From positions 4,224 through 68,223 of the forward strand of contig JAGATW010000074.1 of NCBI GenBank assembly GCA_017621085.1: a stretch of DNA of 64,000 nt. The letters run 5' to 3'. The notes beneath the pieces were generated by a model. It had not been told where the DNA came from. It made no database searches and saw only the letters and a program-made list of their open reading frames with translations. This stretch comes from Clostridia bacterium (GTDB lineage Bacteria; Bacillota; Clostridia; Oscillospirales; CAG-272). The position numbers were made by a program, and so were the translations under genes. Within the stretch, counting starts at the first letter, position 1, and each line of letters opens with the position of its first letter. Of this stretch, positions 12,944-59,466 are shown in pieces.

Positions 12944-15856
12944 TTATTCGATTGGATTTTCCAAAATGCCCCAGCTAACACAGGAATGATTTGTGATTCC
13001 GTTTACAAGCCATAAAAAGCTCCACTCAGAAGGCTGACCTTCAACCTGACAGTAAATGTTTTTAAGATTATCGCATCCGTCAAATACGGCAGCTCCCATT
13101 GCTGCCACTGCGCTTGGAATATAAATGCTTTCAATAGCTGTTTCGGAAAATGCTTCGTTGCCTATATATTCTGCACCCGAACCAATAACTACGCTTTTTA
13201 AATCAGAGCATTTATCAAAGGCGTATTCTCCGATTTTAATAACTGTTGACGGTATAATTACCTTTTCAAGAATGGTGTTTTCGTAAAATGCATAAGGCAA
13301 GATTTGTGTGATTTCTATATCGTTAACCGATGATGGAACAGTAACCTCTGCTACATCACCGTAATAACCGGCAATACAGAATTCATCCTTTGGACTTTGT
13401 ACCCATAAAAAGCCGTCGTCCGTATACCCGGTTGATTTATAGCCCCAATTTATGCAGTAGTGATGGTCATTACCGTTTGCCGTCCATGCCATGTGCCAGC
13501 CTGTAAGAGCTACATTGTCCATAGGAGGCTGACTGCTTAACTGACAAAAAATATTATTTAAGCTGTTACATCCGTCAAATACAGCAGCTCCCATTGTTGC
13601 CACCGTGCTTGGAATAAAAATGCTTTGGATAGATGTATTAGCAAATGCACGTGTCATAATTATCTCAACCCCTGTGTCTATTTCCACCCTTTTCAAGCTT
13701 GTACAACCATCAAAAGCAGATGTATCAATTTTTTTAATTGTGCCCGGTATAAACACTTCTTCAATGACAGTATTCTCATAAAACGCATAGGGTAAAATTA
13801 TTGTAACAGGCAAGCCCTTGTATTCACTTGGAATTTCCAAACGGGTTGTATTTTTAAAATTACTGCTTGCTGTAACACTGTATGAAGCTTCATCATCATT
13901 TAAAACAAATTTAAATGTACCGTCCTCTTCATATGAATTCTTTCCCGTTATGTCATTTTCCGAATTTACATAAACAAGAGTATGCTTAAGATAAACAGGA
14001 TTTTCCGAGGTGGAATCAACATGCTCATATGTATTCCAATTGCTTGACCAATTTGTTGTATCAACACCGTTTTGGCAGTAAATAATCAGCTTTTCCATAG
14101 AGTTTCCGCTATAACGCTCTGTTCCTGCAATGCTTGAGCCCATATATAAAACGCTATTTGGAATGTACAAATACACAAGGGAAGAGCAGCCACAAAAGGC
14201 AGATGAACCAATGCTTACAACACTGTTTGGAATATTAATGTGCTTAATAGAGCTTTCAAATAAAAATGCAGACTCATCAATATGAGTAATTGTATTTGGA
14301 ATAATAACATTTGTTACACTGTTTGCCTCATCAACCCTTTCAATGTGAGTAACGGGCAAGCCGTTATAGGTGCTTGGAATAATAAGCTCTGTATCGCTTT
14401 TTCCACCACCGTAGTAAACAACGCTGTAAGAAGAATTGTCCTCATTTAGATTGAAGGTGAAATCATTTAAATTAGCCTCGTAATTCTGACAAACGGTACA
14501 TTTTTTGTCAACATAGCTGTGGTCCTTCACCTTTATAAGCTCACCCGGGCTTATAACATAGCTACAAGCAGAGCATACAATTTTGTCACCTAAGCCTGTT
14601 TTTGTGCAGGTGGAATCGTAGCCGGGGGTAATGCTTTCTGTATGAGGAGCAAGCGCTAAATCCTTTTGCTCAGTTAATATTTCATTACATTCGGTACATC
14701 TTACCCCATCGGATTTTCCTGCGGTTGTACAGGTTGAAGCATAGCCTTTAATTGTTTCTTTTATATGCTGTCCGTTTGATTCTATTATTTGTTGCTTTAA
14801 TAAAATAATCTTACAGTAAGAGCATCGCTTACCCTCGGTTAGTCCGTCCCTTAAGCAGGTAGCATCGTATCCCTCTATTATTTCTACTGTATGCTCAATA
14901 AAATCAATTTCCACTTGCCCCTGTAAAATTTTATTACATTCGGAGCATTTAACCCCGTCAGTTTGTCCTTTTTCTACACAAGTAGCTGCTTTTCCTTCAA
15001 TAGCTACACGTGTGTGTGCCTCGGGGTCAACGTCAATTACAGCTTGAGGAGTCAATGCTTTTTTGCAATCAGAGCAGATAACTCCATTTGTTAAGCCTGT
15101 TTTCGTACAGGAGGATGCATAACCGTTAATTATTTGCTCTGTATGATTGTCCTTGTTAATGCTAATAGGCATTTGCTCCTTTAGAATTGTATTACAGTTA
15201 GAGCATTTTATTCCATCGGTAAGACCGCCCTTTGAACAGGTTGACTCATATCCGTTTATAATTACCTCAGAGTGTGGCACAGTGGGAATAGCACGTGACT
15301 CGGTAGCATCGCATTTTTCACAGTATCTTCTTTCTAAGCCTGCCTTATTGCAGCTTGGCTCAATTTCTACCTCGTATGCACCAAAAACACAGATATGGCT
15401 TGTTTTTGAGGAGCTTGTAGGCGGTGTGGATGGCTCATCCCTGTTAAGCGCAAGTGCTAATGCTATTCCAAGAGCAATAGCAATTAAGGAAACGGATAAT
15501 AAAAGACAAATCAAAAAAACATTTTTCTTTTTACCCTTTTCTTCCTTATTTGGAGCTTTAGCATCATTTAAAGATTCATCCCAAGCTTCCTTGTCAACAA
15601 ATTCCTGTGGTTCGTCCTCCTCATTATTAGTAATGACAATAGGCACCTCGGCAATATCTACATTATCATTAAGTAAATCGCTAAGAGATACATTAAATAT
15701 ATCAGATAGCCTTTTTACCTTTTCTATTTCAGGTGTTGTTTGTCCCGTTTCCCATTTATAAATAGCTTGTCTTGAAACATCAAGCTCGTTTGCGAGCTGC
15801 TCTTGGCTAAGACCACGCCTTTTTCTTAATAGCACTATTTTTTCGGATAGCTGCAT
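12944..15856 (-). CDS. membrane-tethered XRE-family HTH protein with extracellular His/Cys-rich repeats and BspA-type leucine-rich repeats
   Basis: 970 aa. N-terminal HTH_3 (LLRKRRGLSQEQLANELDVSRQAIYKWETGQ). One TM helix (VFLICLLLSVSLIAIALGIALALAL). Seven and a half copies of an approximately 43 aa H-x9/10-C-x8/9-C-x2-C repeat. C-terminal repeats of the IP.SV..IG..AF..C..L type (LRR_5/BspA). Confidence 0.8.
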   Translation of the reverse strand: MQLSEKIVLLRKRRGLSQEQLANELDVSRQAIYKWETGQTTPEIEKVKRLSDIFNVSLSDLLNDNVDIAEVPIVITNNEEDEPQEFVDKEAWDESLNDAKAPNKEEKGKKKNVFLICLLLSVSLIAIALGIALALALNRDEPSTPPTSSSKTSHICVFGAYEVEIEPSCNKAGLERRYCEKCDATESRAIPTVPHSEVIINGYESTCSKGGLTDGIKCSNCNTILKEQMPISINKDNHTEQIINGYASSCTKTGLTNGVICSDCKKALTPQAVIDVDPEAHTRVAIEGKAATCVEKGQTDGVKCSECNKILQGQVEIDFIEHTVEIIEGYDATCLRDGLTEGKRCSYCKIILLKQQIIESNGQHIKETIKGYASTCTTAGKSDGVRCTECNEILTEQKDLALAPHTESITPGYDSTCTKTGLGDKIVCSACSYVISPGELIKVKDHSYVDKKCTVCQNYEANLNDFTFNLNEDNSSYSVVYYGGGKSDTELIIPSTYNGLPVTHIERVDEANSVTNVIIPNTITHIDESAFLFESSIKHINIPNSVVSIGSSAFCGCSSLVYLYIPNSVLYMGSSIAGTERYSGNSMEKLIIYCQNGVDTTNWSSNWNTYEHVDSTSENPVYLKHTLVYVNSENDITGKNSYEEDGTFKFVLNDDEASYSVTASSNFKNTTRLEIPSEYKGLPVTIILPYAFYENTVIEEVFIPGTIKKIDTSAFDGCTSLKRVEIDTGVEIIMTRAFANTSIQSIFIPSTVATMGAAVFDGCNSLNNIFCQLSSQPPMDNVALTGWHMAWTANGNDHHYCINWGYKSTGYTDDGFLWVQSPKDEFCIAGYYGDVAEVTVPSSVNDIEITQILPYAFYENTILEKVIIPSTVIKIGEYAFDKCSDLKSVVIGSGAEYIGNEAFSETAIESIYIPSAVAAMGAAVFDGCDNLKNIYCQVEGQPSEWSFLWLVNGITNHSCVSWGILENPIE

Positions 15857-51545: not shown

Positions 51546-51749
51546 CTAATCTCTTTTGGAAAAATGACCGCAGGCAGGTGAATTCTCACGCTTATCGTTT
51601 TTATCCGAAAATTTGCGACAGCTTCTGTATGTGTCGCTAAAATAATCACACTCACCACACTGTGGTAGCATATAACGTCCACAATGCGGGCAAGTAATTG
51701 CCCAAGTTGAAATGGATTTGTTGCAATCAGGGCAGTATTTAAGTCCCAT
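51546..51749 (-). CDS. zinc-ribbon protein (4 x CxxC), 67 aa
   Basis: Contains CPDC..(13)..CPHC, CGEC and a further C..C..CGH. AAAAGGAGA RBS lies 9 nt upstream. The gene starts 22 nt after the stop of the TIR-HD gene and ends 2 nt before the GH31 start. Confidence 0.55.
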   Translation of the reverse strand: MGLKYCPDCNKSISTWAITCPHCGRYMLPQCGECDYFSDTYRSCRKFSDKNDKRENSPACGHFSKRD

Positions 51750-51771
51750 AATTCTAAATCTCCTTTTTTAT

Positions 51772-54771
51772 TTATTCGCTTTTTTTGTCTATTTTAGATT
51801 CGGTTACAAGCTTATCAATGCATTTTCTGTATATTGGATTGCGTGTGATAATTCTGTCAAATAGCTCATAGCCGATATCAGTGCTTAGCTTGTTACCCTT
51901 AGCACGCCACTCGCCAACTGTTTCAAGGGTGAATTTTTCAGGATTTCTTACAAAATAGTCAAAGAATGTGTTTGTTGTCTGAATAAGATTAATGTCACGT
52001 GCAATTCTTGCATTAATATTTTGACCGTTATAATAGCCTGTCCAAATATTATAATAATAGGTCATATTAGAAACCTCAGGGTATGTACCCTTTAGGAAAA
52101 GCTTTTTGATTACATTGTTATGCTCCTTAAGCTCCTTTTTAGGCTCTGAAAGGCTTTCCTGCTGGTCGCCTATTATGGATTCAGCCATATCGTGAATAAG
52201 AAGCATATCAAGGATTTCTTGCTTATTATACTCAGGGTCATCCGATAGCATAGGTAAAAACAGCATTGCCATGGTCCAAGCATTCATAGTATGCTCAGCT
52301 AAGCTTTCAGGGTCGTCAATGCCGTAATTCAGCCATTGGGTGCGCTTAGCCTCCTTCATTCTTGAAAGCCTTGTGTAAAGAAAGAAGGCAGCATCAAATC
52401 TTGTATTGTCAATATAGCTTTCAAAATCCTCCTTTACAGATTGGAAATAGTAAAGAAGCTTGTCAGATACAACGCTGCGTGGGCGTTGCTGGTATTCATT
52501 TAAAAAGGCAACGGCTCTTTGTGCAAAGCTTGCAAGATTGTATTGAAGCCTTTCGGGAGTTGTGTGCATACGTGCCTGAATAAGAGTAAGCAGAGAAACA
52601 AGGTCTGTTTCCACATAGCCTGTTTTCTTAGCATTCAGCTTGCTTTCAACACCACTGCACAAAATTCTTATAGCCTGCTCACCGTAGCTTAAATCTGTAT
52701 CGGTATAAAAATCGTTATGTAAATTAATCTGGCAGTTATCGTCTAAGCTTTCAACAGTTGCACCTCTGTTAATTGCGTTTGCAACATCGTTTATTACAAT
52801 TAAGCAAAGATACTCATCAAGAATTTTCGTGTTGCCATAGGCTATTAAGCTTTGGCAAACGGAACGGAATAAGTAATGATTGCAACGGTTTATAAGAGTT
52901 TGACGGTTATCTGTTTTCACAAGTGGCTTAAGTCTTTGGTATTCACCTTGTAAAAAGGACTTTGCCTCCTCCTCAAGCTCAGCATAATCAAGGCAACCAA
53001 GCCAATAGGTTGCATTGGATTTTTGAGTAATATCAAAGGAGTCGTAATTTTCTAAAATAAGCTTAAGCAGCAGCTTTTGTAAATGATAGTTTCCGTTAAG
53101 GTGTGAAGCAATAAAGCGATTTTGCATAGAATTTGTAGGAATTTTCAAAAATTCCAAATTCTTAGTTTCGTCTGAGATTGTTACACGGTGACAGAAATAA
53201 TATGCAATCATAAAGTCAAGATATGTGTTATGCTTGTGTGGTAATGACCATAAAACGGCATTGTACTTGCTTGCCTTAGGGTTATGCTTGTGATTGAACA
53301 AATACTCATATAGCTCGTTGGCAATTTGAAGTATTTTTTCCTCGTTGCCGTTTAAATCGCTAACAGCTAAGCGCTCGTACATATCAACAAGAGAAATATC
53401 GTCAACAGAGTGACCCAATGAAAGCTCTGTTGCCACAAGACGAATTGTGAAGATATCAATAGTAGAAAAGCCCAAGCGTAGAAGTGCGTTATAAACAACA
53501 TTTTCCTCAATTCCCTCGTACTTGTCAATGTACATATCAAGTATTGTACGAATAGACTCAAGGCAAGAAACCTTATCTGTAATTGGAAGTGGGTTAAAGC
53601 AGAAGGTATAACCTGTTACATTACCGATAAGTGGAATTGTTCTTTTAAGACGTTGACGGTTTTTAATTAATTTTACGTCAATGGCTACAATACGGTTGAA
53701 TTTTTCAAATTTTTTCTCCTTCCACAGCTCAAGAACAACATCCTCAGGAGCAAAGGCGGAAACCATATGCTCACGTACAGCCTCAATCATTAAAACAGGC
53801 TGTGTTTCAGGATTCTTTTTGACAAAGCTAAAGAATTCCTTCATTTCCTCCCTTAAAACATTTGTCATATCGGTGCGTGGGTCCGTATCTGAATATTTTT
53901 TCTTTTCATAGAAGCTTGAGGAAATATAGCAGGGAAGATAGTTGCTTTCCCCATTTTTAAAGGACTCAAGCATTTTATAATATGCAAGCTGTAAAAGCAT
54001 ATTTTTAGCACAGCCAGGAAGACCGTTTACCTCAATGGAAACGCCCTGACCCTGTGAAAGAGTATCAACAATAATATCAACAAAGTCAATTCCCTTAGCA
54101 GTTGGGCGACCCTTAAAGTACATTGAAAGAGTATGGTCAAATAAGACCTTTGCTAATTTTTTAAATTCCTCGTGCTTTTCTCCGTAAGCCCTGTCACGCA
54201 GACAGTAGGGAAATTTTTCTATTTTGCTAAGCAAGGCATTAACAATTTCCTCCCTTGTCATATTGGGTAAATCGTCTATAACTTCCTTGCTTTCTTCTTT
54301 CGATGATGATTTTTTCTTTGATTTTTCGTTGATTTTCTTAACAGGCTCATCCTTAGCTGTGGGCTCGTTGCCAAAAATCTCATGCTGTATTATGCTCAGC
54401 GTACGCTTAAGAGCCAAATTCATATTATCAAAGGCGTCAATCCACTGTACTTGTTGAAAATAATAAGCTCTTCGCTTTGAAACCTCATAATTGGCAATTC
54501 GCAAGGGAATGATTTTTTTATCATTGCTGAAGGCAATATTCAATTCGGAGCCAACGTGTCGGGAATCGTCTGAGTTTTTTGAGAAAATCATTACAAAGAC
54601 GTCGCAATCAATAATAGCATCATAAATTTTCTCGGCAAAGCTCTCTCCACCCTCAATGTTTTGTGAGGCAATCCAGCAGGTAATACCATTTCCCTCTAAA
54701 TAACTATGTACAAGGTTTGCAACCTCTGCATCCTTTGTGGAATAGCTTATAAATACAAAAGGCTTTTTCAT
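51772..54771 (-). CDS. TIR / degenerate P-loop (STAND-like) / helical region / YfbR-type HD phosphohydrolase protein (999 aa)
   Basis: - aa 1-125: TIR (FVFISYSTKD...CWIA...SRHVGSELNIA, Glu76).
- aa 250-257: GLPGCAKN, at the position and context of a Walker A motif.
- aa 325-330: VLMIEA, Walker B-like.
- aa 820-870: LAEHTMNAW...(30)...LLIHDMAESIIGD, an H...HD...D metal-binding pattern of the HD_3/YfbR type. Confidence 0.8.
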   Translation of the reverse strand: MKKPFVFISYSTKDAEVANLVHSYLEGNGITCWIASQNIEGGESFAEKIYDAIIDCDVFVMIFSKNSDDSRHVGSELNIAFSNDKKIIPLRIANYEVSKRRAYYFQQVQWIDAFDNMNLALKRTLSIIQHEIFGNEPTAKDEPVKKINEKSKKKSSSKEESKEVIDDLPNMTREEIVNALLSKIEKFPYCLRDRAYGEKHEEFKKLAKVLFDHTLSMYFKGRPTAKGIDFVDIIVDTLSQGQGVSIEVNGLPGCAKNMLLQLAYYKMLESFKNGESNYLPCYISSSFYEKKKYSDTDPRTDMTNVLREEMKEFFSFVKKNPETQPVLMIEAVREHMVSAFAPEDVVLELWKEKKFEKFNRIVAIDVKLIKNRQRLKRTIPLIGNVTGYTFCFNPLPITDKVSCLESIRTILDMYIDKYEGIEENVVYNALLRLGFSTIDIFTIRLVATELSLGHSVDDISLVDMYERLAVSDLNGNEEKILQIANELYEYLFNHKHNPKASKYNAVLWSLPHKHNTYLDFMIAYYFCHRVTISDETKNLEFLKIPTNSMQNRFIASHLNGNYHLQKLLLKLILENYDSFDITQKSNATYWLGCLDYAELEEEAKSFLQGEYQRLKPLVKTDNRQTLINRCNHYLFRSVCQSLIAYGNTKILDEYLCLIVINDVANAINRGATVESLDDNCQINLHNDFYTDTDLSYGEQAIRILCSGVESKLNAKKTGYVETDLVSLLTLIQARMHTTPERLQYNLASFAQRAVAFLNEYQQRPRSVVSDKLLYYFQSVKEDFESYIDNTRFDAAFFLYTRLSRMKEAKRTQWLNYGIDDPESLAEHTMNAWTMAMLFLPMLSDDPEYNKQEILDMLLIHDMAESIIGDQQESLSEPKKELKEHNNVIKKLFLKGTYPEVSNMTYYYNIWTGYYNGQNINARIARDINLIQTTNTFFDYFVRNPEKFTLETVGEWRAKGNKLSTDIGYELFDRIITRNPIYRKCIDKLVTESKIDKKSE

Positions 54772-54800
54772 AAATGCTCCCTATCTTAAATCGAAATCTC

Positions 54801-54835
54801 ATTATAATTATAACATAGTATATGTGAAAATGCAA
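54801..54835 (-). promoter_or_regulatory. putative sigma-A promoter of the TIR-HD gene
   Basis: Minus strand TTGCAT (54835-54830), 17 nt spacer, TATAAT (54812-54807). A second overlapping TATAAT lies at 54806-54801. Confidence 0.55.
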
Positions 54836-54859
54836 CGACAAAAAGGGACATATATCAAA

Positions 54860-54888
54860 AGAAAAAGACAGGCGCTTGTCCTGTCTTT
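54860..54888 (-). terminator. rho-independent terminator after the free TIR gene
   Basis: Stem AAGACAGG/CCTGTCTT with a 7 nt loop, followed on the minus strand by TTTTTCTTTTG. Confidence 0.65.
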
Positions 54889-54894
54889 GAAATA

Positions 54895-55296
54895 TTAATC
54901 CTCAAAATTCTGTAATGTGTTCAGTAGGCTTTTAAGGGCTGTATCTATATCCTCTGAGCCATCAAACCATCGTGTCCGTTCTAAAAAGTATTTGTGGCTT
55001 TTTGAAAGCTCATAATCTGAAATGCGTAACGGAAGGATGATTTTCGCTTGGGAAAAAGCAAGTGATAATTCTGAATTAACATGCTCAGACTCACTTGAAT
55101 TTTTCGAGGCGATTAAGACGCAAGCAAAGCAATTGCTGATTGCATCAAAGATTTCCGCAGCAAAGCTATCTCCCCCCTTGATATTATGTGAGGCAATCCA
55201 GCAGGGAATACCATTTCCCTCCAAATAGTTGTAAACAAGGTTTGCAGCATCTGTGTCTTTTATGGAATAACTAATAAAAACGTAAGGCTTTTTCAT
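54895..55296 (-). CDS. stand-alone TIR domain protein (133 aa)
   Basis: MKKPYVFISYSIKD...GIPCWIASHNIKGGDSF...SEHVNSELSLA. By hand alignment, 65 of the first 100 residues are identical to the N-terminus of the 999 aa protein. I prefer the ATG at 55296 (AAGGAG RBS 7 nt upstream). Confidence 0.8.
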   Translation of the reverse strand: MKKPYVFISYSIKDTDAANLVYNYLEGNGIPCWIASHNIKGGDSFAAEIFDAISNCFACVLIASKNSSESEHVNSELSLAFSQAKIILPLRISDYELSKSHKYFLERTRWFDGSEDIDTALKSLLNTLQNFED

Positions 55297-55345
55297 AAAC
55301 ATTCTCCTTTTTATTGTTGTCAAGTATTTTGAAAATTGCTTGTAA

Positions 55346-57439
55346 TTAAACTATTTTTTTCAAATCTATGGTGTTCTTTGCCATGATTTTTTCTTTCATT
55401 TTAATGTACTCATGACATTTTTCAGGGTCATCTATACCCATTGCGTACTTTATATAGTCGTAAAGAACGTCGGCAATTAACTGAGATGGTACAGAATTAC
55501 AGGACAGCCGTTGAGGGGAAATGTTAAACCATAGTCCCGTAACAGGCATTTGATTAGCTGATAATGCAGGCTGAACATAGTCAAAGTCAAGGTGCCAAAA
55601 GTTATTCTTGTTCCAAAAATATAAGTACTTTTTAATGCCGGCTCTACTATGCTCAGGAGAGTCAATTTCACAACAAATATAGTCAAGAGGCTTTTTATTT
55701 GCTTGATATGCATCCTGTGATAAAATAGAGGTAACGTGCTTATATATCATTGTGCCGATTCCACTTGATTGCAAGTCGTTTTTAACAGCCAAAAATTCAA
55801 TAACACCGGCATTGCTCTTTTTGTAATAGTTGAATATACATCCACCGACAACACGGTCGTTTTCGTCCTTTGCTAAAATAATGTGATACTTATATTCCTT
55901 AGCATCAATACCCTGCCTTAGATAAAGCAAGAAATTATCAAAGCTCTCACGCTCATCATCATCGGGAAAGGCTTCCATATAAATATCGGTATAAAACTGT
56001 CCAAGGTCTGAAACTGTGCTTTGGTTCTTGTAGGATACCTCAACGTATTTTAGCGAATTGCTTGGAGTAAAGAATTCATCATAAGCTGCAAAAACATCAG
56101 CAGGAGAATGCTTAGGCTCCATATAAATATTATCCTTTAACATTTTTCCGAATGGAGTTTTAGAATTAAAAACCTCTTGATATTTTTTTGTGCATTCTGT
56201 GGCGATTTTGTCGTTCATAGCGCACACAAAACGATATTTACGCTCTGCATTTTCAGGATCGGAATAAATGCTCTCAAAATGCTTTAAGCTCTTGTCAATT
56301 AACGTGTCTATAAGAAATTCGTAGGTTGAATTGTTGGCAAGGTTAGCATGCTCGAAAAACGCAACGCTTTTTTCAGGCTTAAAGGAAAATTCATCAGCTT
56401 CAAGCTCGAACAAAATCCATACATATGCTGTGCTGTAATATTTTTTCGCCTTGTAGTTCAAGCAGGATGAAAAATCATTAATTTTTGTACCGAAGGACAA
56501 ATCTCCATGTTCAATCTTATCATAGAAATATGCGTTATCGGGATTAATATTTGTACGTAGAGCAGAGTAAAAGGGTTTTTTGTCATAAAGTGTTACATCA
56601 GCAGAAATCAAAGCACCGTATCGTCTGTCGGCGTTGTCCAAGAATCTGGCCCTTAATTTGTCGGCAACATCGCTTTCCGTATCTGCAATTGCAGGTATGG
56701 AGTTACTTTCGTCACCGTATGAAAGCTGACATAAGCCTGCCCAATATTTTTTATATTCCAATTCATAGCTTGGACCCCAAAGCAGCCAAGCAAAGGTGAA
56801 ATACAATTCGTTTGAAAGAACATTTTTGTTTTGTATATTATCGTTTTCGGTTATGTAAGCTGTTGAAACATATCGCTTAATAAACTCCTCCCAGCTTTCC
56901 TCGTATTGAGAAAGCAAGCCCGTTAACAAGCAGGTAGGTGTAGCATAAGCCTCCTCTATGTGTAGAGAAATAACAAAGGATAATTGCTCCCCTTGAATAC
57001 CAAAGGCGTGTCTTACCTTTTTTTGAGAGAAAAATTTAAAATATCTTTCAGTAGCAACAGAAAAATCTGTTTCAATTAAGGGTGTGCAGTTTGGAATTGT
57101 GTAGCTAAGTCTGTTTTGGTCACTATCGGAATAGAAGGCCTTGAAGCTGTTAAGAATGCTTTGCCACTCTGTGCTGATTACAGGGCGACCACCTGTTTCC
57201 AACATTGCATATTCAATAAAGGCTCTTTTTTTCACCTGTGATTTTCTGCAAATGAATAAAGCCTTCATACGTGCAAAAAAGCCCATACCACAGGGACCTA
57301 AAATCTTTTTAAGTGCCTTGGAAAACTTGTTAATCATAATAAAGAAAAACGTTACAACAGAAATTATAATTGCCATAAATTCCAAGACATTCAGAAAAAT
57401 TTCTATTGTTGAAAATAAATTGTCAAAAAAGCTTGCCAT
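55346..57439 (-). CDS. membrane-anchored protein with an unassigned central region and a C-terminal GNAT-like acetyltransferase domain (697 aa)
   Basis: One N-terminal TM helix (IFLNVLEFMAIIISVVTFFFIMI). About 440 aa carry no motif I recognise. In aa 478-650 or so, ...YHIILAKDENDRVVGGCIFNYY...VIEFLAVKNDLQSSGIGTMIYKHV is a GNAT motif-A-like (Q/R-x-x-G-x-G/A) pattern. Confidence 0.65.
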   Translation of the reverse strand: MASFFDNLFSTIEIFLNVLEFMAIIISVVTFFFIMINKFSKALKKILGPCGMGFFARMKALFICRKSQVKKRAFIEYAMLETGGRPVISTEWQSILNSFKAFYSDSDQNRLSYTIPNCTPLIETDFSVATERYFKFFSQKKVRHAFGIQGEQLSFVISLHIEEAYATPTCLLTGLLSQYEESWEEFIKRYVSTAYITENDNIQNKNVLSNELYFTFAWLLWGPSYELEYKKYWAGLCQLSYGDESNSIPAIADTESDVADKLRARFLDNADRRYGALISADVTLYDKKPFYSALRTNINPDNAYFYDKIEHGDLSFGTKINDFSSCLNYKAKKYYSTAYVWILFELEADEFSFKPEKSVAFFEHANLANNSTYEFLIDTLIDKSLKHFESIYSDPENAERKYRFVCAMNDKIATECTKKYQEVFNSKTPFGKMLKDNIYMEPKHSPADVFAAYDEFFTPSNSLKYVEVSYKNQSTVSDLGQFYTDIYMEAFPDDDERESFDNFLLYLRQGIDAKEYKYHIILAKDENDRVVGGCIFNYYKKSNAGVIEFLAVKNDLQSSGIGTMIYKHVTSILSQDAYQANKKPLDYICCEIDSPEHSRAGIKKYLYFWNKNNFWHLDFDYVQPALSANQMPVTGLWFNISPQRLSCNSVPSQLIADVLYDYIKYAMGIDDPEKCHEYIKMKEKIMAKNTIDLKKIV

Positions 57440-57470
57440 ACTGCCCCCATTAAATGAAAATTACAATTAA

Positions 57471-57499
57471 ATTATAGCAAATACAATCAACCCATTCAA
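57471..57499 (-). promoter_or_regulatory. putative sigma-A promoter of the GNAT-TIR operon
   Basis: Minus strand TTGAAT, 17 nt spacer, TGcTATAAT. GGGGG RBS lies 5 nt before the ATG at 57439. Confidence 0.55.
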
Positions 57500-57627: not shown

Positions 57628-59466
57628 TTATTTTTCTACAATTACAGACACTCCGTCGGGGATAGCAACAATTTTTAAATTGTTTTTGCCTAAAATTGAG
57701 CGTGCCTTTTTTAACGCCTCGTCGATGGAATGAGCAGGGATTAGGTGCATTTTTTCAATTACATCATCCGGCATTTGGGAAATGTAAATAACTCTTGCGT
57801 GTAAAAGCACTCTTAAAAGAATTTGGGTTTGCCATTGGTCAGGCACAGTTTCACTCCTTGCTCGTGAAAGGAACAAATCCATAGTTTTTGTAATGTCCGT
57901 TTCATCTGCTAATTGGTGATAAAAATGGTCCCCACCAATGCCGTCATTGGATTTTGCAAGCATAATAATTACGCCACCCTTTTTAACGGTTGCCTCACCT
58001 GCTGTCATACCCTTAACCGCTTGATATACATTTTGGTCAAGTGGGTAGCCACCGTTTGTGGTAATTACCACATCAGCCTCCTTGGCTTTAACACCGCAAA
58101 GAGAGGACAAAAATTCCGTACCCCTTTTGTGTGCCATTTCCATTTCACCTGCAACTGCATAAATAACCTGCTTTTCGCTATTTAATACTACATTGACAAT
58201 AAAATCAAGCCCTGCTGCTTTAGCACCCCATACCATATCCTTGTGTATTGGGTTGTTTTCTAAAATACCTGTTCTTGCATTTTCATTTGCAATAAACTCG
58301 GAGCAGTGGTTGGCAAGGACTGTTTTTCTTGCGCATACTCCCGGCAACACGCTTTTACGTCCGCCACTAAAGCCTGCAAAAAAGTGTGGCTCAATAAAGC
58401 CCTCGGAAACTAAAAGGTCGGCTTCATAGGCAATTTTGTTTATGACGCACTCACCACCTGAGGGAAGCGTGCCTATTGATACAAGCTTGTCCGTTTCATC
58501 ACAGTCGTGTATGTAAATATTTTCCTTTTCCACAATTTCACTGCCGAATTTAGAAATAAGCTCATCCTTAGTTGTACCACGGTGACAGCCTGTTGCAATT
58601 AAAATTGTAATTTTGGCATTTGGTGAGCCACGTCTTATTTCCTCAAGCATAATAGGCATAATAATTTTGCTTGGCACGGGACGTGTATGGTCACTTGCAA
58701 TAATAACTATATTTTTCTTGCCCTTGGCAAGCTCGCAAAGACGAGGTGAATTAACAGGATTTAAAATAGCATCCTTTACAAGGTCATATTCGTTTTGTGA
58801 TGGTACATAAGTATTAATTGATGATTCCAAAACACCTAAAAGCTCATTTTCATTAAAGCTATGCTCAAGAAAATCCTTGCCATATGGAAATTTAACATTA
58901 ATCATTTTTTCGCCTTTCCTTTTGTCTTCAAGATGTGTGTATATGCGTATAATATTAGGCACAAGTATTAGCTGTGCTATAATGCCGGGAAAAGCATCAA
59001 TAAAGCCACCTACCAAAAATGCCTGGAATGGAAATGGCTTGTCAGCCACGCCTAATAAAATTGCTTTGGAAAAACCCCAAACAACTCTGCCGATAAGCAT
59101 AGAGGAAATAAGGGATACATAAAGGGCAAGGTAGCCCTTTTTCTTAAACAGCCTATATACTAAGGCTATTACAAGACCGTAGGTGGCAAGCTCCAGGCTC
59201 ATCCAAACAGCATTTGGGTAAAGTGGTGGCATACCAAAAATAAAGCTGCGCATAAACGGTAAAATCAATCCAACGCACAAGCCATATTCCCACCCACATA
59301 TTAAGCCACATAGCATAACGGGTAAGTGCATTGGTAAAAGAGAATCGCCAATTTCTTTAATTTGCCCTGTAAGAAGTGGTAAAATAAGACCGAGAGCTAA
59401 AAAAAGAGCTGCAAAAACAAGGGATTTTAAATTCTTATTCATTCGTTTATTATTTTTACTTGACAT
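57628..59466 (-). CDS. fusion protein: ECF-transporter S-component-like membrane domain plus LarA-family (DUF2088) nickel-pincer racemase/epimerase domain
   Basis: A single open frame of 612 codons.
- aa 1-187: hydrophobic, with LLPMHLPVMLCGLICGWEYG... (ECF_trnsprt-like).
- aa 188-612: start MINVKFPYGKDF and carry IASDHTRP, EPHFFAGFSGGRKSVLPG and LANH, matching LarA catalytic and cofactor residues from memory.
- Alternative start: ATG at 59442, which forms an ATGA overlap with the upstream stop.
- Internal RBS-like AAAAGGAAAGG at 58913-58923. Confidence 0.7.
   Translation of the reverse strand: MSSKNNKRMNKNLKSLVFAALFLALGLILPLLTGQIKEIGDSLLPMHLPVMLCGLICGWEYGLCVGLILPFMRSFIFGMPPLYPNAVWMSLELATYGLVIALVYRLFKKKGYLALYVSLISSMLIGRVVWGFSKAILLGVADKPFPFQAFLVGGFIDAFPGIIAQLILVPNIIRIYTHLEDKRKGEKMINVKFPYGKDFLEHSFNENELLGVLESSINTYVPSQNEYDLVKDAILNPVNSPRLCELAKGKKNIVIIASDHTRPVPSKIIMPIMLEEIRRGSPNAKITILIATGCHRGTTKDELISKFGSEIVEKENIYIHDCDETDKLVSIGTLPSGGECVINKIAYEADLLVSEGFIEPHFFAGFSGGRKSVLPGVCARKTVLANHCSEFIANENARTGILENNPIHKDMVWGAKAAGLDFIVNVVLNSEKQVIYAVAGEMEMAHKRGTEFLSSLCGVKAKEADVVITTNGGYPLDQNVYQAVKGMTAGEATVKKGGVIIMLAKSNDGIGGDHFYHQLADETDITKTMDLFLSRARSETVPDQWQTQILLRVLLHARVIYISQMPDDVIEKMHLIPAHSIDEALKKARSILGKNNLKIVAIPDGVSVIVEK

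Follow-up and report, generated by a model that had tools for sequence, protein, structure and literature searches.

Four consecutive minus-strand genes in a 64,000-nucleotide stretch of a Clostridia genome (contig JAGATW010000074.1; here, the window) raise the question of whether they form one immune system or whether only some of them belong together. They encode a 697-amino-acid (aa) GNAT-domain protein (GNAT697; 55346-57439), a free-standing TIR protein (54895-55323 from a TTG codon; 54895-55296, 133 aa, from ATG), a 999-aa protein with an N-terminal TIR domain and a C-terminal HD domain (51772-54771; here, the giant), and a 67-aa zinc ribbon protein with four CxxC motifs (ZnR67; 51546-51749). 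A preliminary description had taken them for a self-contained TIR locus and a candidate undescribed system of immunity or NAD signaling. Open reading frame (ORF) calling and Pfam searches confirm that the four ORFs and their domains exist at the coordinates it gave. The comparisons presented here point to a different unit, however: the giant alone is probably functional as a single-gene immune protein that resembles receptors with nucleotide-binding and leucine-rich-repeat domains (NLRs), belongs with the bNACHT/Avs kind of STAND proteins, and carries an HD domain at its C terminus. Its role is probably antiphage.

The giant matches the Pfam families TIR_2 (E = 3e-24) and HD_3 (YfbR-like; E = 4e-18, residues 803 to 943). 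An AlphaFold2 model built from 65 homologues has a pLDDT of 85.6 and a pTM of 0.75, and its sole disordered part is at residues 136 to 165 (pLDDT < 50). On the minus strand, the protein divides into a TIR domain with candidate catalytic residue Glu76 (residues 1 to 133; 54373-54771), assigned from TIR_2, fold matches, and conservation; a linker that is disordered by pLDDT and variable by column entropy (residues 134 to 170; 54262-54372); a NACHT-like nucleotide-binding oligomerization module (residues 171 to 545; 53137-54261), recognized from the model, from conservation, and from Pfam NACHT matches in relatives; an all-helical region with about 12 helices in the model (residues 546 to 790; 52402-53136); and an HD domain of the YfbR/HDDC2 type (residues 791 to 999; 51772-52401), identified by HD_3, by alignment with HDDC2, and by its fold. 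The Walker A motif, G250-L-P-G-C-A-K256-N (54001-54024), lies in a strand-loop-helix at residues 245 to 272 of the model. The best matches of the giant among Protein Data Bank (PDB) structures in a Foldseek search are RPP1, followed by NOD2, NLRP9, NLRP14, NAIP5, NLRP7, and ORC/Cdc6, and the matches to NLR structures span approximately 550 to 750 columns. Separate fold matches link the C terminus to HDDC2 and PH0347 and the TIR domain to SPARTA TIR-APAZ, SARM1, and AbTir. Thus, the model indicates that the middle of the giant is a complete NACHT-like STAND NTPase module. The preliminary description had called this region P-loop-like.

Counts over 65 family sequences show that the residues expected of each domain are kept. 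Glu76 of the TIR domain is present in 64 of 65 sequences. In the NTPase part, Walker A reads G250-x-x-G253-x-A-K256-N in the close family and K256 is invariant (65/65); the Walker B motif, hhhh[E/D]330, is found in 64/65, and both R333 and H514, the latter in the winged-helix region, are found in all 65. The conserved positions of the HD domain are R810, W813, H827 (63/65), H860 (65/65), D861 (62/65), E864, D869, and D926 (65/65). Column entropy is highest in the linker (3.1 bits), and the helical region has a mean of 1.53 bits, like the other domains.

The family is broader than the close homologues, of which there are about 98 full-length clusters from gut Clostridia. A profile of the middle 620 residues, searched at E < 1e-3 against 1.84 billion representative sequences, recovered no fewer than 584 clusters at 50% identity, most of them from gut Clostridia and metagenomes. 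A profile of this wider family matches the NACHT domain of NLRP14 (E = 1.5e-3). Among 48 distant members sampled, HD_3 is present in 45 and a Pfam NACHT match in 11, these being relatives at a profile E value of <1e-40. Their N termini vary: PNP, TIR, PRTase-CE, metallophosphatase, HD-CE, trypsin, CHAT, caspase, and EAD1 domains are all found, and PADLOC reads these N termini as effectors of the CBASS, retron, and DRT types. One further exchange is seen within the giants themselves, where a domain of about 150 aa with no Pfam match replaces TIR in L037 (9456-12445), L038 (9398-12436), and L039 (9527-12517); the gene immediately upstream in these three loci encodes a conserved protein of 445 to 472 aa that Pfam does not match with confidence, and a frameshift or stop interrupts the giant gene of L037.

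The HD domain, as judged from its sequence, is the constant, family-defining module, and its predicted metal-binding and deoxynucleotide-pocket residues are kept. The close-family profile matches HDDC2 (E = 1.7e-14) and YGL101W (E = 2e-12), and HDDC2 is also matched by structure (TM-score of 0.62); the wider-family profile matches HDDC2 (E = 1.6e-29), YGL101W, YfbR, and the phage dATPase DatZ. The matches to DatZ are weaker (PDB 6zpa, E = 0.011 and 2e-4; PHROG 7076, E = 3e-6). The fold is accompanied by the H...HD...D metal ligands and the RxxW/E/D substrate residues, with the RxxW motif and the HDxxE(x4)D motif aligning with RTGW and HDMAECIVGD of human HDDC2. We take the spacing of H860-D861-E864-D869 to be that of H68-D69-E72-D77 in YfbR. 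The giant shares with YfbR, HDDC2, and YGL101W the RxxW, H, HD, E, and D residues at the spacing of the HDDC2 alignment. It differs from these proteins and from DatZ in that they are free-standing, at approximately 180 to 215 aa, whereas the HD domain of the giant is the C terminus of a STAND protein.

How far this protein belongs to a known kind can be judged against the bacterial NACHT proteins and Avs. Like them, it is a single tripartite polypeptide with an effector (for which TIR is a listed option), a STAND NTPase extended by a winged helix, and a module at the C terminus; it folds like NOD2, the NLRPs, and NAIP5 and has a P-loop NTPase; and the N-terminal effector is exchanged among relatives of its family. 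It departs from them at the C terminus, which is a conserved helical region plus HD_3 with no repeat (LRR, TPR, or HEAT), no FGS, and no short variable sensor of the SNaCT type, and in its motifs. The NACHT Walker B signature reported for bNACHT proteins, D[GAS]hDE (Kibby et al., bioRxiv 10.1101/2022.07.19.500537), reads [E/D][A/G]hRE in the giants ([E56/D8]-[A60/G5]-h-R(65/65)-[E62/D2]), with Arg in place of the first acidic residue of the trailing pair, and members of the close family have GxxGxAKN as Walker A. HD is absent from the domain list of the same paper (10.1101/2022.07.19.500537), and the abstract of a preprint now puts Avs at 90 families or more. We found no description in the literature of a STAND/NACHT family with a C-terminal HD_3 domain, although the tables of a 2026 STAND survey (PMC13581612) may list it. 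The novelty claimed in the preliminary description was overstated, as effector, STAND NTPase, and C-terminal module make up a known architecture related to bacterial NLRs, and it is the constant YfbR-type HD module that is unusual.

The best whole-model match, plant RPP1 (PDB 7dfv and 7crc; E = 6e-6, about 590 aligned columns), shares with the giant a TIR domain followed by a STAND nucleotide-binding module, but sequence identity is 11% and the full-length TM-score is 0.17. Plant TIR-NLRs are of the NB-ARC flavor and end in effector-binding LRR and C-JID domains, whereas the C terminus of the giant is an HD domain. The two are alike in architecture and not by membership.

Other TIR systems match the giant through its TIR domain. 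The fold and the conserved Glu of TIR NADases are present (SARM1, AbTir, and SPARTA fold matches), from which NADase activity is predicted. The best PADLOC match, Aga_TIR-PNTD1-PNTD2 of SPARTA/short pAgo (E = 1.4e-11), covers residues 1 to 164, and the TIR folds agree; this is a TIR-only match, however, and the locus and its flanks encode neither APAZ nor Argonaute in any of their ORFs. A TIR gene adjoining a larger protein is reminiscent of Thoeris, and both TIR domains of the locus weakly match ThsB (PADLOC E = 2e-7 to 4e-7; Pfam ThsB_TIR E = 0.01 to 0.03, below the cutoff). In contrast to Thoeris, Pfam, PADLOC, and NCBIfam find no ThsA-type partner (SIR2, Macro, SLOG, or transmembrane effector) in the four proteins, and the free TIR copies the TIR of the giant itself and is separated from it by a terminator. 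The preliminary description had noted the absence of SIR2, SLOG, Macro, CD-NTase, and STING partners; this is borne out, so the locus is neither Thoeris nor CBASS. It had also proposed a TIR-based immune candidate outside the named systems, and PADLOC, NCBIfam, and PHROGs searches of the four proteins likewise return domain-level TIR, HD, and GNAT matches and name no system.

By analogy with bNACHT/Avs proteins and TIR-NLRs, the nucleotide-bound NTPase module would hold the giant monomeric at rest. A cue tied to infection would act on the helical/HD part at the C terminus, relieve autoinhibition, and allow the module to oligomerize. Oligomerization would gather the TIR domains, which could then cleave NAD+ via Glu76, and the loss of NAD+ would end in abortive infection or an arrest of growth.

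Conflict systems usually have their effector at the end that varies and a sensor or regulator at the end that stays constant. This generalization, the intact HD pocket, and the lack of a hypervariable part together favor a deoxynucleotide-binding sensor or regulator, and we consider it most likely, if by a modest measure, that the HD domain senses or regulates via such a ligand. A conserved small molecule would fit the lack of hypervariability better than a fast-evolving phage protein would. A less likely option, suggested by the membership of DatZ in this HD family, is that the HD domain is a second effector that dephosphorylates deoxynucleoside monophosphates (dNMPs) or triphosphates (dNTPs). 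More speculative than either is a fuller version of the sensor role, in which the HD domain would be the ligand sensor of a large bacterial NLR-like branch, reading the deoxynucleotide pool, for example dNMPs from phage-degraded host DNA or phage-modified nucleotides, and switching on NACHT oligomerization and the attached effector (here TIR), with TIR-only or TIR-repeat neighbors joining the TIR assembly.

Whether the neighboring genes belong to the unit was judged from other loci. A pattern-based scan of one genome per species across 185,579 species yielded 48 loci with giants, of which 41 are distinct. When ORFs were called and neighbors compared, no neighbor was common to these loci, all in Clostridia metagenome-assembled genomes. 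In the window the gene order is LarA, GNAT, free TIR, giant, ZnR, GH31, SDR. The near relative L062, with proteins 84 to 88% identical, has LarA, GNAT, giant, TIR-Sel1, LRR_5 (opposite strand), ZnR, GH31, SDR; L063 has giant, TIR-Sel1, ZnR, GH31, SDR; and L064 has giant, a 482-aa gene (opposite strand), ZnR, GH31.

ZnR67, which zinc ribbon Pfam models match weakly and below their cutoffs, follows GH31 and not the giant. It abuts GH31 by 2 to 5 nucleotides in the window and in L062, L063, and L064, and in the latter three, 1.7 to 4.5 kb of other genes separates it from the giant. The promoter-like sequence TTGCAA-17-TGTTAAAAT upstream of ZnR is common to the three relatives, and the TTGATA-16-TAAAAT of the window (51791-51818, minus strand), which lies inside the 3' coding end of the giant, aligns with it as a promoter-like site for ZnR, GH31, and SDR. 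Since ZnR abuts GH31 regardless of what intervenes and a conserved promoter precedes it, ZnR67 appears to be the first gene of a ZnR-GH31-SDR unit and to lie outside the TIR unit. The 3' end of the proposed locus is therefore open and not self-contained: the ZnR stop codon is 2 nucleotides before the GH31 ATG, and a consensus and hairpin scan of the window finds no terminator between them. No zinc ribbon homologue is found beside any other giant among the 41 loci. One giant, P0071, ends in a topoisomerase-type C4 zinc finger; as a Rosetta-stone link between ZnR and the giants it was given no weight, being of a different zinc finger family and present in a single cluster.

GNAT697 has a hydrophobic helix at its N terminus and, at its C terminus, a GNAT domain (Acetyltransf_1, E = 3e-7, residues 484 to 575) whose model matches GCN5, RimI, and PaiA. 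The acetyl-CoA motif Q/RxxGxG/A is present, with Q557, G560, and G562 invariant in 57 sequences. Its family exceeds 187 clusters with 61% mean column identity. Many of its aromatic residues are invariant, its neighborhood differs in every lineage examined, and residues 110 to 470 form an alpha/beta region with no PDB fold match among the matches listed. Among the 41 loci, a GNAT697 homologue stands beside the giant only in the lineage of the window and in one Lachnospiraceae lineage (L001/L028), where the gap is 1.2 kb and contains an Rpn-family transposase fragment. In five of five other contexts, GNAT697 has no TIR gene nearby and has different neighbors each time; a 997-aa gene near GNAT in L074, considered as a possible giant, encodes an unrelated secreted protein. 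In two giants, P0093 (1,233 aa) and P0086 (1,213 aa), the TIR domain is preceded by an additional GNAT-like domain at the N terminus, about 200 aa long (Acetyltransf_1, E = 1e-3, just under the cutoff). A Rosetta-stone link through these two was rejected, as BLASTP against GNAT697 shows no specific similarity. From these sequence comparisons, GNAT697 is probably a bystander, an independent neighbor of the TIR unit.

The free TIR (TIR_2, E = 3e-21) likely starts at the ATG at 55296, and its first residues, MKKPYVFISYS, are like those of the giant. Over nucleotides 1 to 296 from the ATG, its DNA shares 71 to 73% identity with giant genes at their 5' ends, and the top 25 BLASTP matches listed are all giant N termini, with 56 to 62% identity to giant TIR domains. 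It is thus, on this identity, a species-specific truncated paralogue of the TIR module of the giant. The free TIR and its terminator (about 470 nucleotides) sit between the GNAT stop codon and the promoter of the giant only in the species of the window, including same-species contigs L070 and L071; L062 has no free TIR, and there the spacer between GNAT and the giant is about 150 nucleotides. The protein keeps the Glu in the same SxHVxSEL motif as the TIR of the giant, and it may modulate assembly of the giant or do nothing.

Transcription signals separate these genes further. In the window, on the minus strand, a promoter-like site precedes GNAT697 (57471-57499; TTGAAT-17-TATAAT with TG, a consensus match only), a hairpin terminator with a 9-bp stem, four G-C pairs, and a T-run lies 3' of the free TIR (54864-54888), and the giant has its own promoter (54801-54836; TTGCAT-17-TGTTATAAT), found by sequence and consensus scan. 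These promoter-like sites and the hairpin are present where the preliminary description had put them. The window holds 33 promoter-like consensus matches, versus 22 ± 4.8 in shuffled sequences of this AT-rich DNA. Because bare matches are common in such DNA, we relied on conservation in relatives instead. The promoter block of the giant is conserved between the window and L062 (about 85% identity), where no free TIR precedes the giant.

The four genes, then, do not co-occur outside close relatives, an outcome that the preliminary description had itself named as refuting its proposal, and the idea that the membrane GNAT protein, free TIR, giant, and zinc ribbon are one new immune or NAD-signaling system is very improbable. 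The genes are contiguous on one strand in the window, GNAT and the giant are adjacent again in L001/L028 with different flanks, and GNAT-like and zinc finger domains are fused to a few giants (P0093, P0086, and P0071). Yet a transposase fragment intervenes in L001, a hairpin resembling a terminator, judged by visual inspection of the alignment, seems to belong to the GNAT gene of L062 itself, the highly conserved GNAT697 family occurs alone elsewhere, the fused GNAT-like domain has no specific similarity to it, and ZnR remains beside GH31 with a conserved promoter of its own. A unit of two components would be less surprising, although we still regard it as unlikely: the giant and a neighboring TIR protein (the free TIR here; TIR-LRR, TIR-Sel1, or TIR-WD40 in relatives) would coassemble through their TIR domains, with the partner relaying a signal from its own repeat sensor or capping or inhibiting the assembly. 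Such a partnership is consistent with another TIR ORF lying within 7 kb of the giant at 12 of 41 loci, abutting or overlapping it on the same strand in six (L005, L017, L027, L029, L031, and L032); with the TIR-Sel1 gene directly after the giant in L062 and L063; and with the Glu of the free TIR and its similarity to giant TIRs. However, at the other 29 loci no further TIR gene lies within 7 kb, the partner differs in position, strand, and C-terminal domain from locus to locus, a terminator and a separate promoter stand between the free TIR and the giant in the window, and TIR clustering could merely reflect hot spots of defense genes. Overall, TIR partners may take part in the assembly of the giant in some lineages but not universally.

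Several observations weigh against an immune NLR-like role for the giant by itself. The giant of the window has no Pfam NACHT match and the mid-domain profile of the close family has no PDB sequence match, so the NACHT assignment rests on fold and transitive homology; it took the fold search and a profile of the wider family to reveal the NLR relationship. Walker A departs from the usual motif, with Ala for the second Gly and Asn for Ser/Thr, one relative has Asp at a Walker A Gly position, and NTP hydrolysis could be impaired. Column entropy reveals no hypervariable sensor region, unlike many bNACHT/Avs proteins. No PADLOC or NCBIfam defense model matches the giant past its TIR domain, and no PADLOC model matches the NTPase part. 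The neighborhood in the window is of the housekeeping type (PNPase, FtsK, glutamine synthetase III, and GH95) with no defense island, and the GC content of the locus (0.36 to 0.39) is only slightly lower than that of the flanks (0.40 to 0.43). A tblastn search of phage and plasmid collections with the NTPase and HD part found no homologue of the STAND part, and thus the gene is not evidently borne by mobile elements in those collections. The giant keeps its genomic position among relatives of 85 to 93% identity, and an insertion event was not demonstrated, as no empty site (LarA-GNAT-ZnR-GH31 without the giant) was found: metagenome GH31 relatives were too distant (43 to 50% identity) and had no zinc ribbon, same-species contigs carry the same locus, and GNAT relatives of 74 to 77% identity lie in other contexts. 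The second lineage with GNAT beside the giant and the GNAT-like extension of two giants also count on this side, in that they leave a link to GNAT some small probability.

Some of the same observations would fit a housekeeping protein that serves nucleotide metabolism in these Clostridia, either as a deoxynucleotidase under regulation or as an enzyme of NAD turnover: the stable position and housekeeping flanks, the even conservation across domains with no fast-evolving region, and the intact HD active site. We consider this quite unlikely, given that the distribution is patchy (48 loci in the whole species set), the neighborhoods are unrelated, TIR-rich neighborhoods are frequent, and the N terminus in the wider family is swapped among toxin-type effectors. 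The reading of the giant as a single-gene immune protein remains the one that we prefer.

If the giant is immune, it would add a sizeable unannotated branch (at least 584 clusters) to the bacterial NLR-like STAND defense proteins, one defined by an HD domain of the deoxynucleotidase type, seemingly intact catalytically, where sensors normally sit. This raises the question of whether the deoxynucleotide pool can be sensed, or acted on, by NLR-like receptors. One polypeptide would also combine two antiphage strategies that are already known, the depletion of NAD+ by TIR and that of the nucleotide pool. Should the HD domain be the sensor, then the sensor of an NLR would be a small-molecule pocket derived from an enzyme and not a protein-binding repeat. 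For annotation, the locus illustrates that contiguity on one strand does not make a system; comparison with other loci, three in near relatives and about 40 more distant, left one real unit, the remainder being two bystanders and a duplicated fragment.

Several other features of the loci with giants were also observed. The L064 giant is 93% identical to that of the window, versus 72% for the flanking zinc ribbon and 81% for GH31, suggesting that related strains have exchanged the giant gene horizontally or by recombination. A conserved block lies upstream of the giant in L005 (296-12949), L017, L020, L022, L027, L029, L031, and L043 (partly in L036 and L042), in a subclade that includes Dorea, Lachnoclostridium, Mediterraneibacter, and others. 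It encodes a protein of 1,083 to 1,905 aa with no Pfam match, a protein of about 380 aa with weak metallopeptidase-like matches, a transglutaminase-core protein of about 440 aa, and a protein of about 590 to 720 aa ending in a RyR domain, and a TIR-LRR gene often overlaps the stop codon of the giant. This block and the giant may form a larger multigene conflict system. Further large genes of the conflict type also cluster at loci with giants: those for a 1,346-aa DUF4062 protein (L042, 10432-14472; also L043) and a 1,264-aa TIR-WD40 protein (L017, 12906-16700), and three further TIR ORFs, including a second protein, of 996 aa (L006, 1708-8758).

Elsewhere in the window, 12944-15856 (minus strand) encodes a 970-aa protein of unusual architecture, with an N-terminal XRE-type helix-turn-helix and BspA-type LRR_5 repeats; LRR_5 proteins are also found near giants in L007 and L062. 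The LarA gene next to GNAT697 (57628-59466, minus strand) encodes a 612-aa fusion of a membrane domain like the S component of energy-coupling factor transporters with a LarA-type lactate racemase (Lar_N and LarA_C), and this fusion is kept in L062 and L070.

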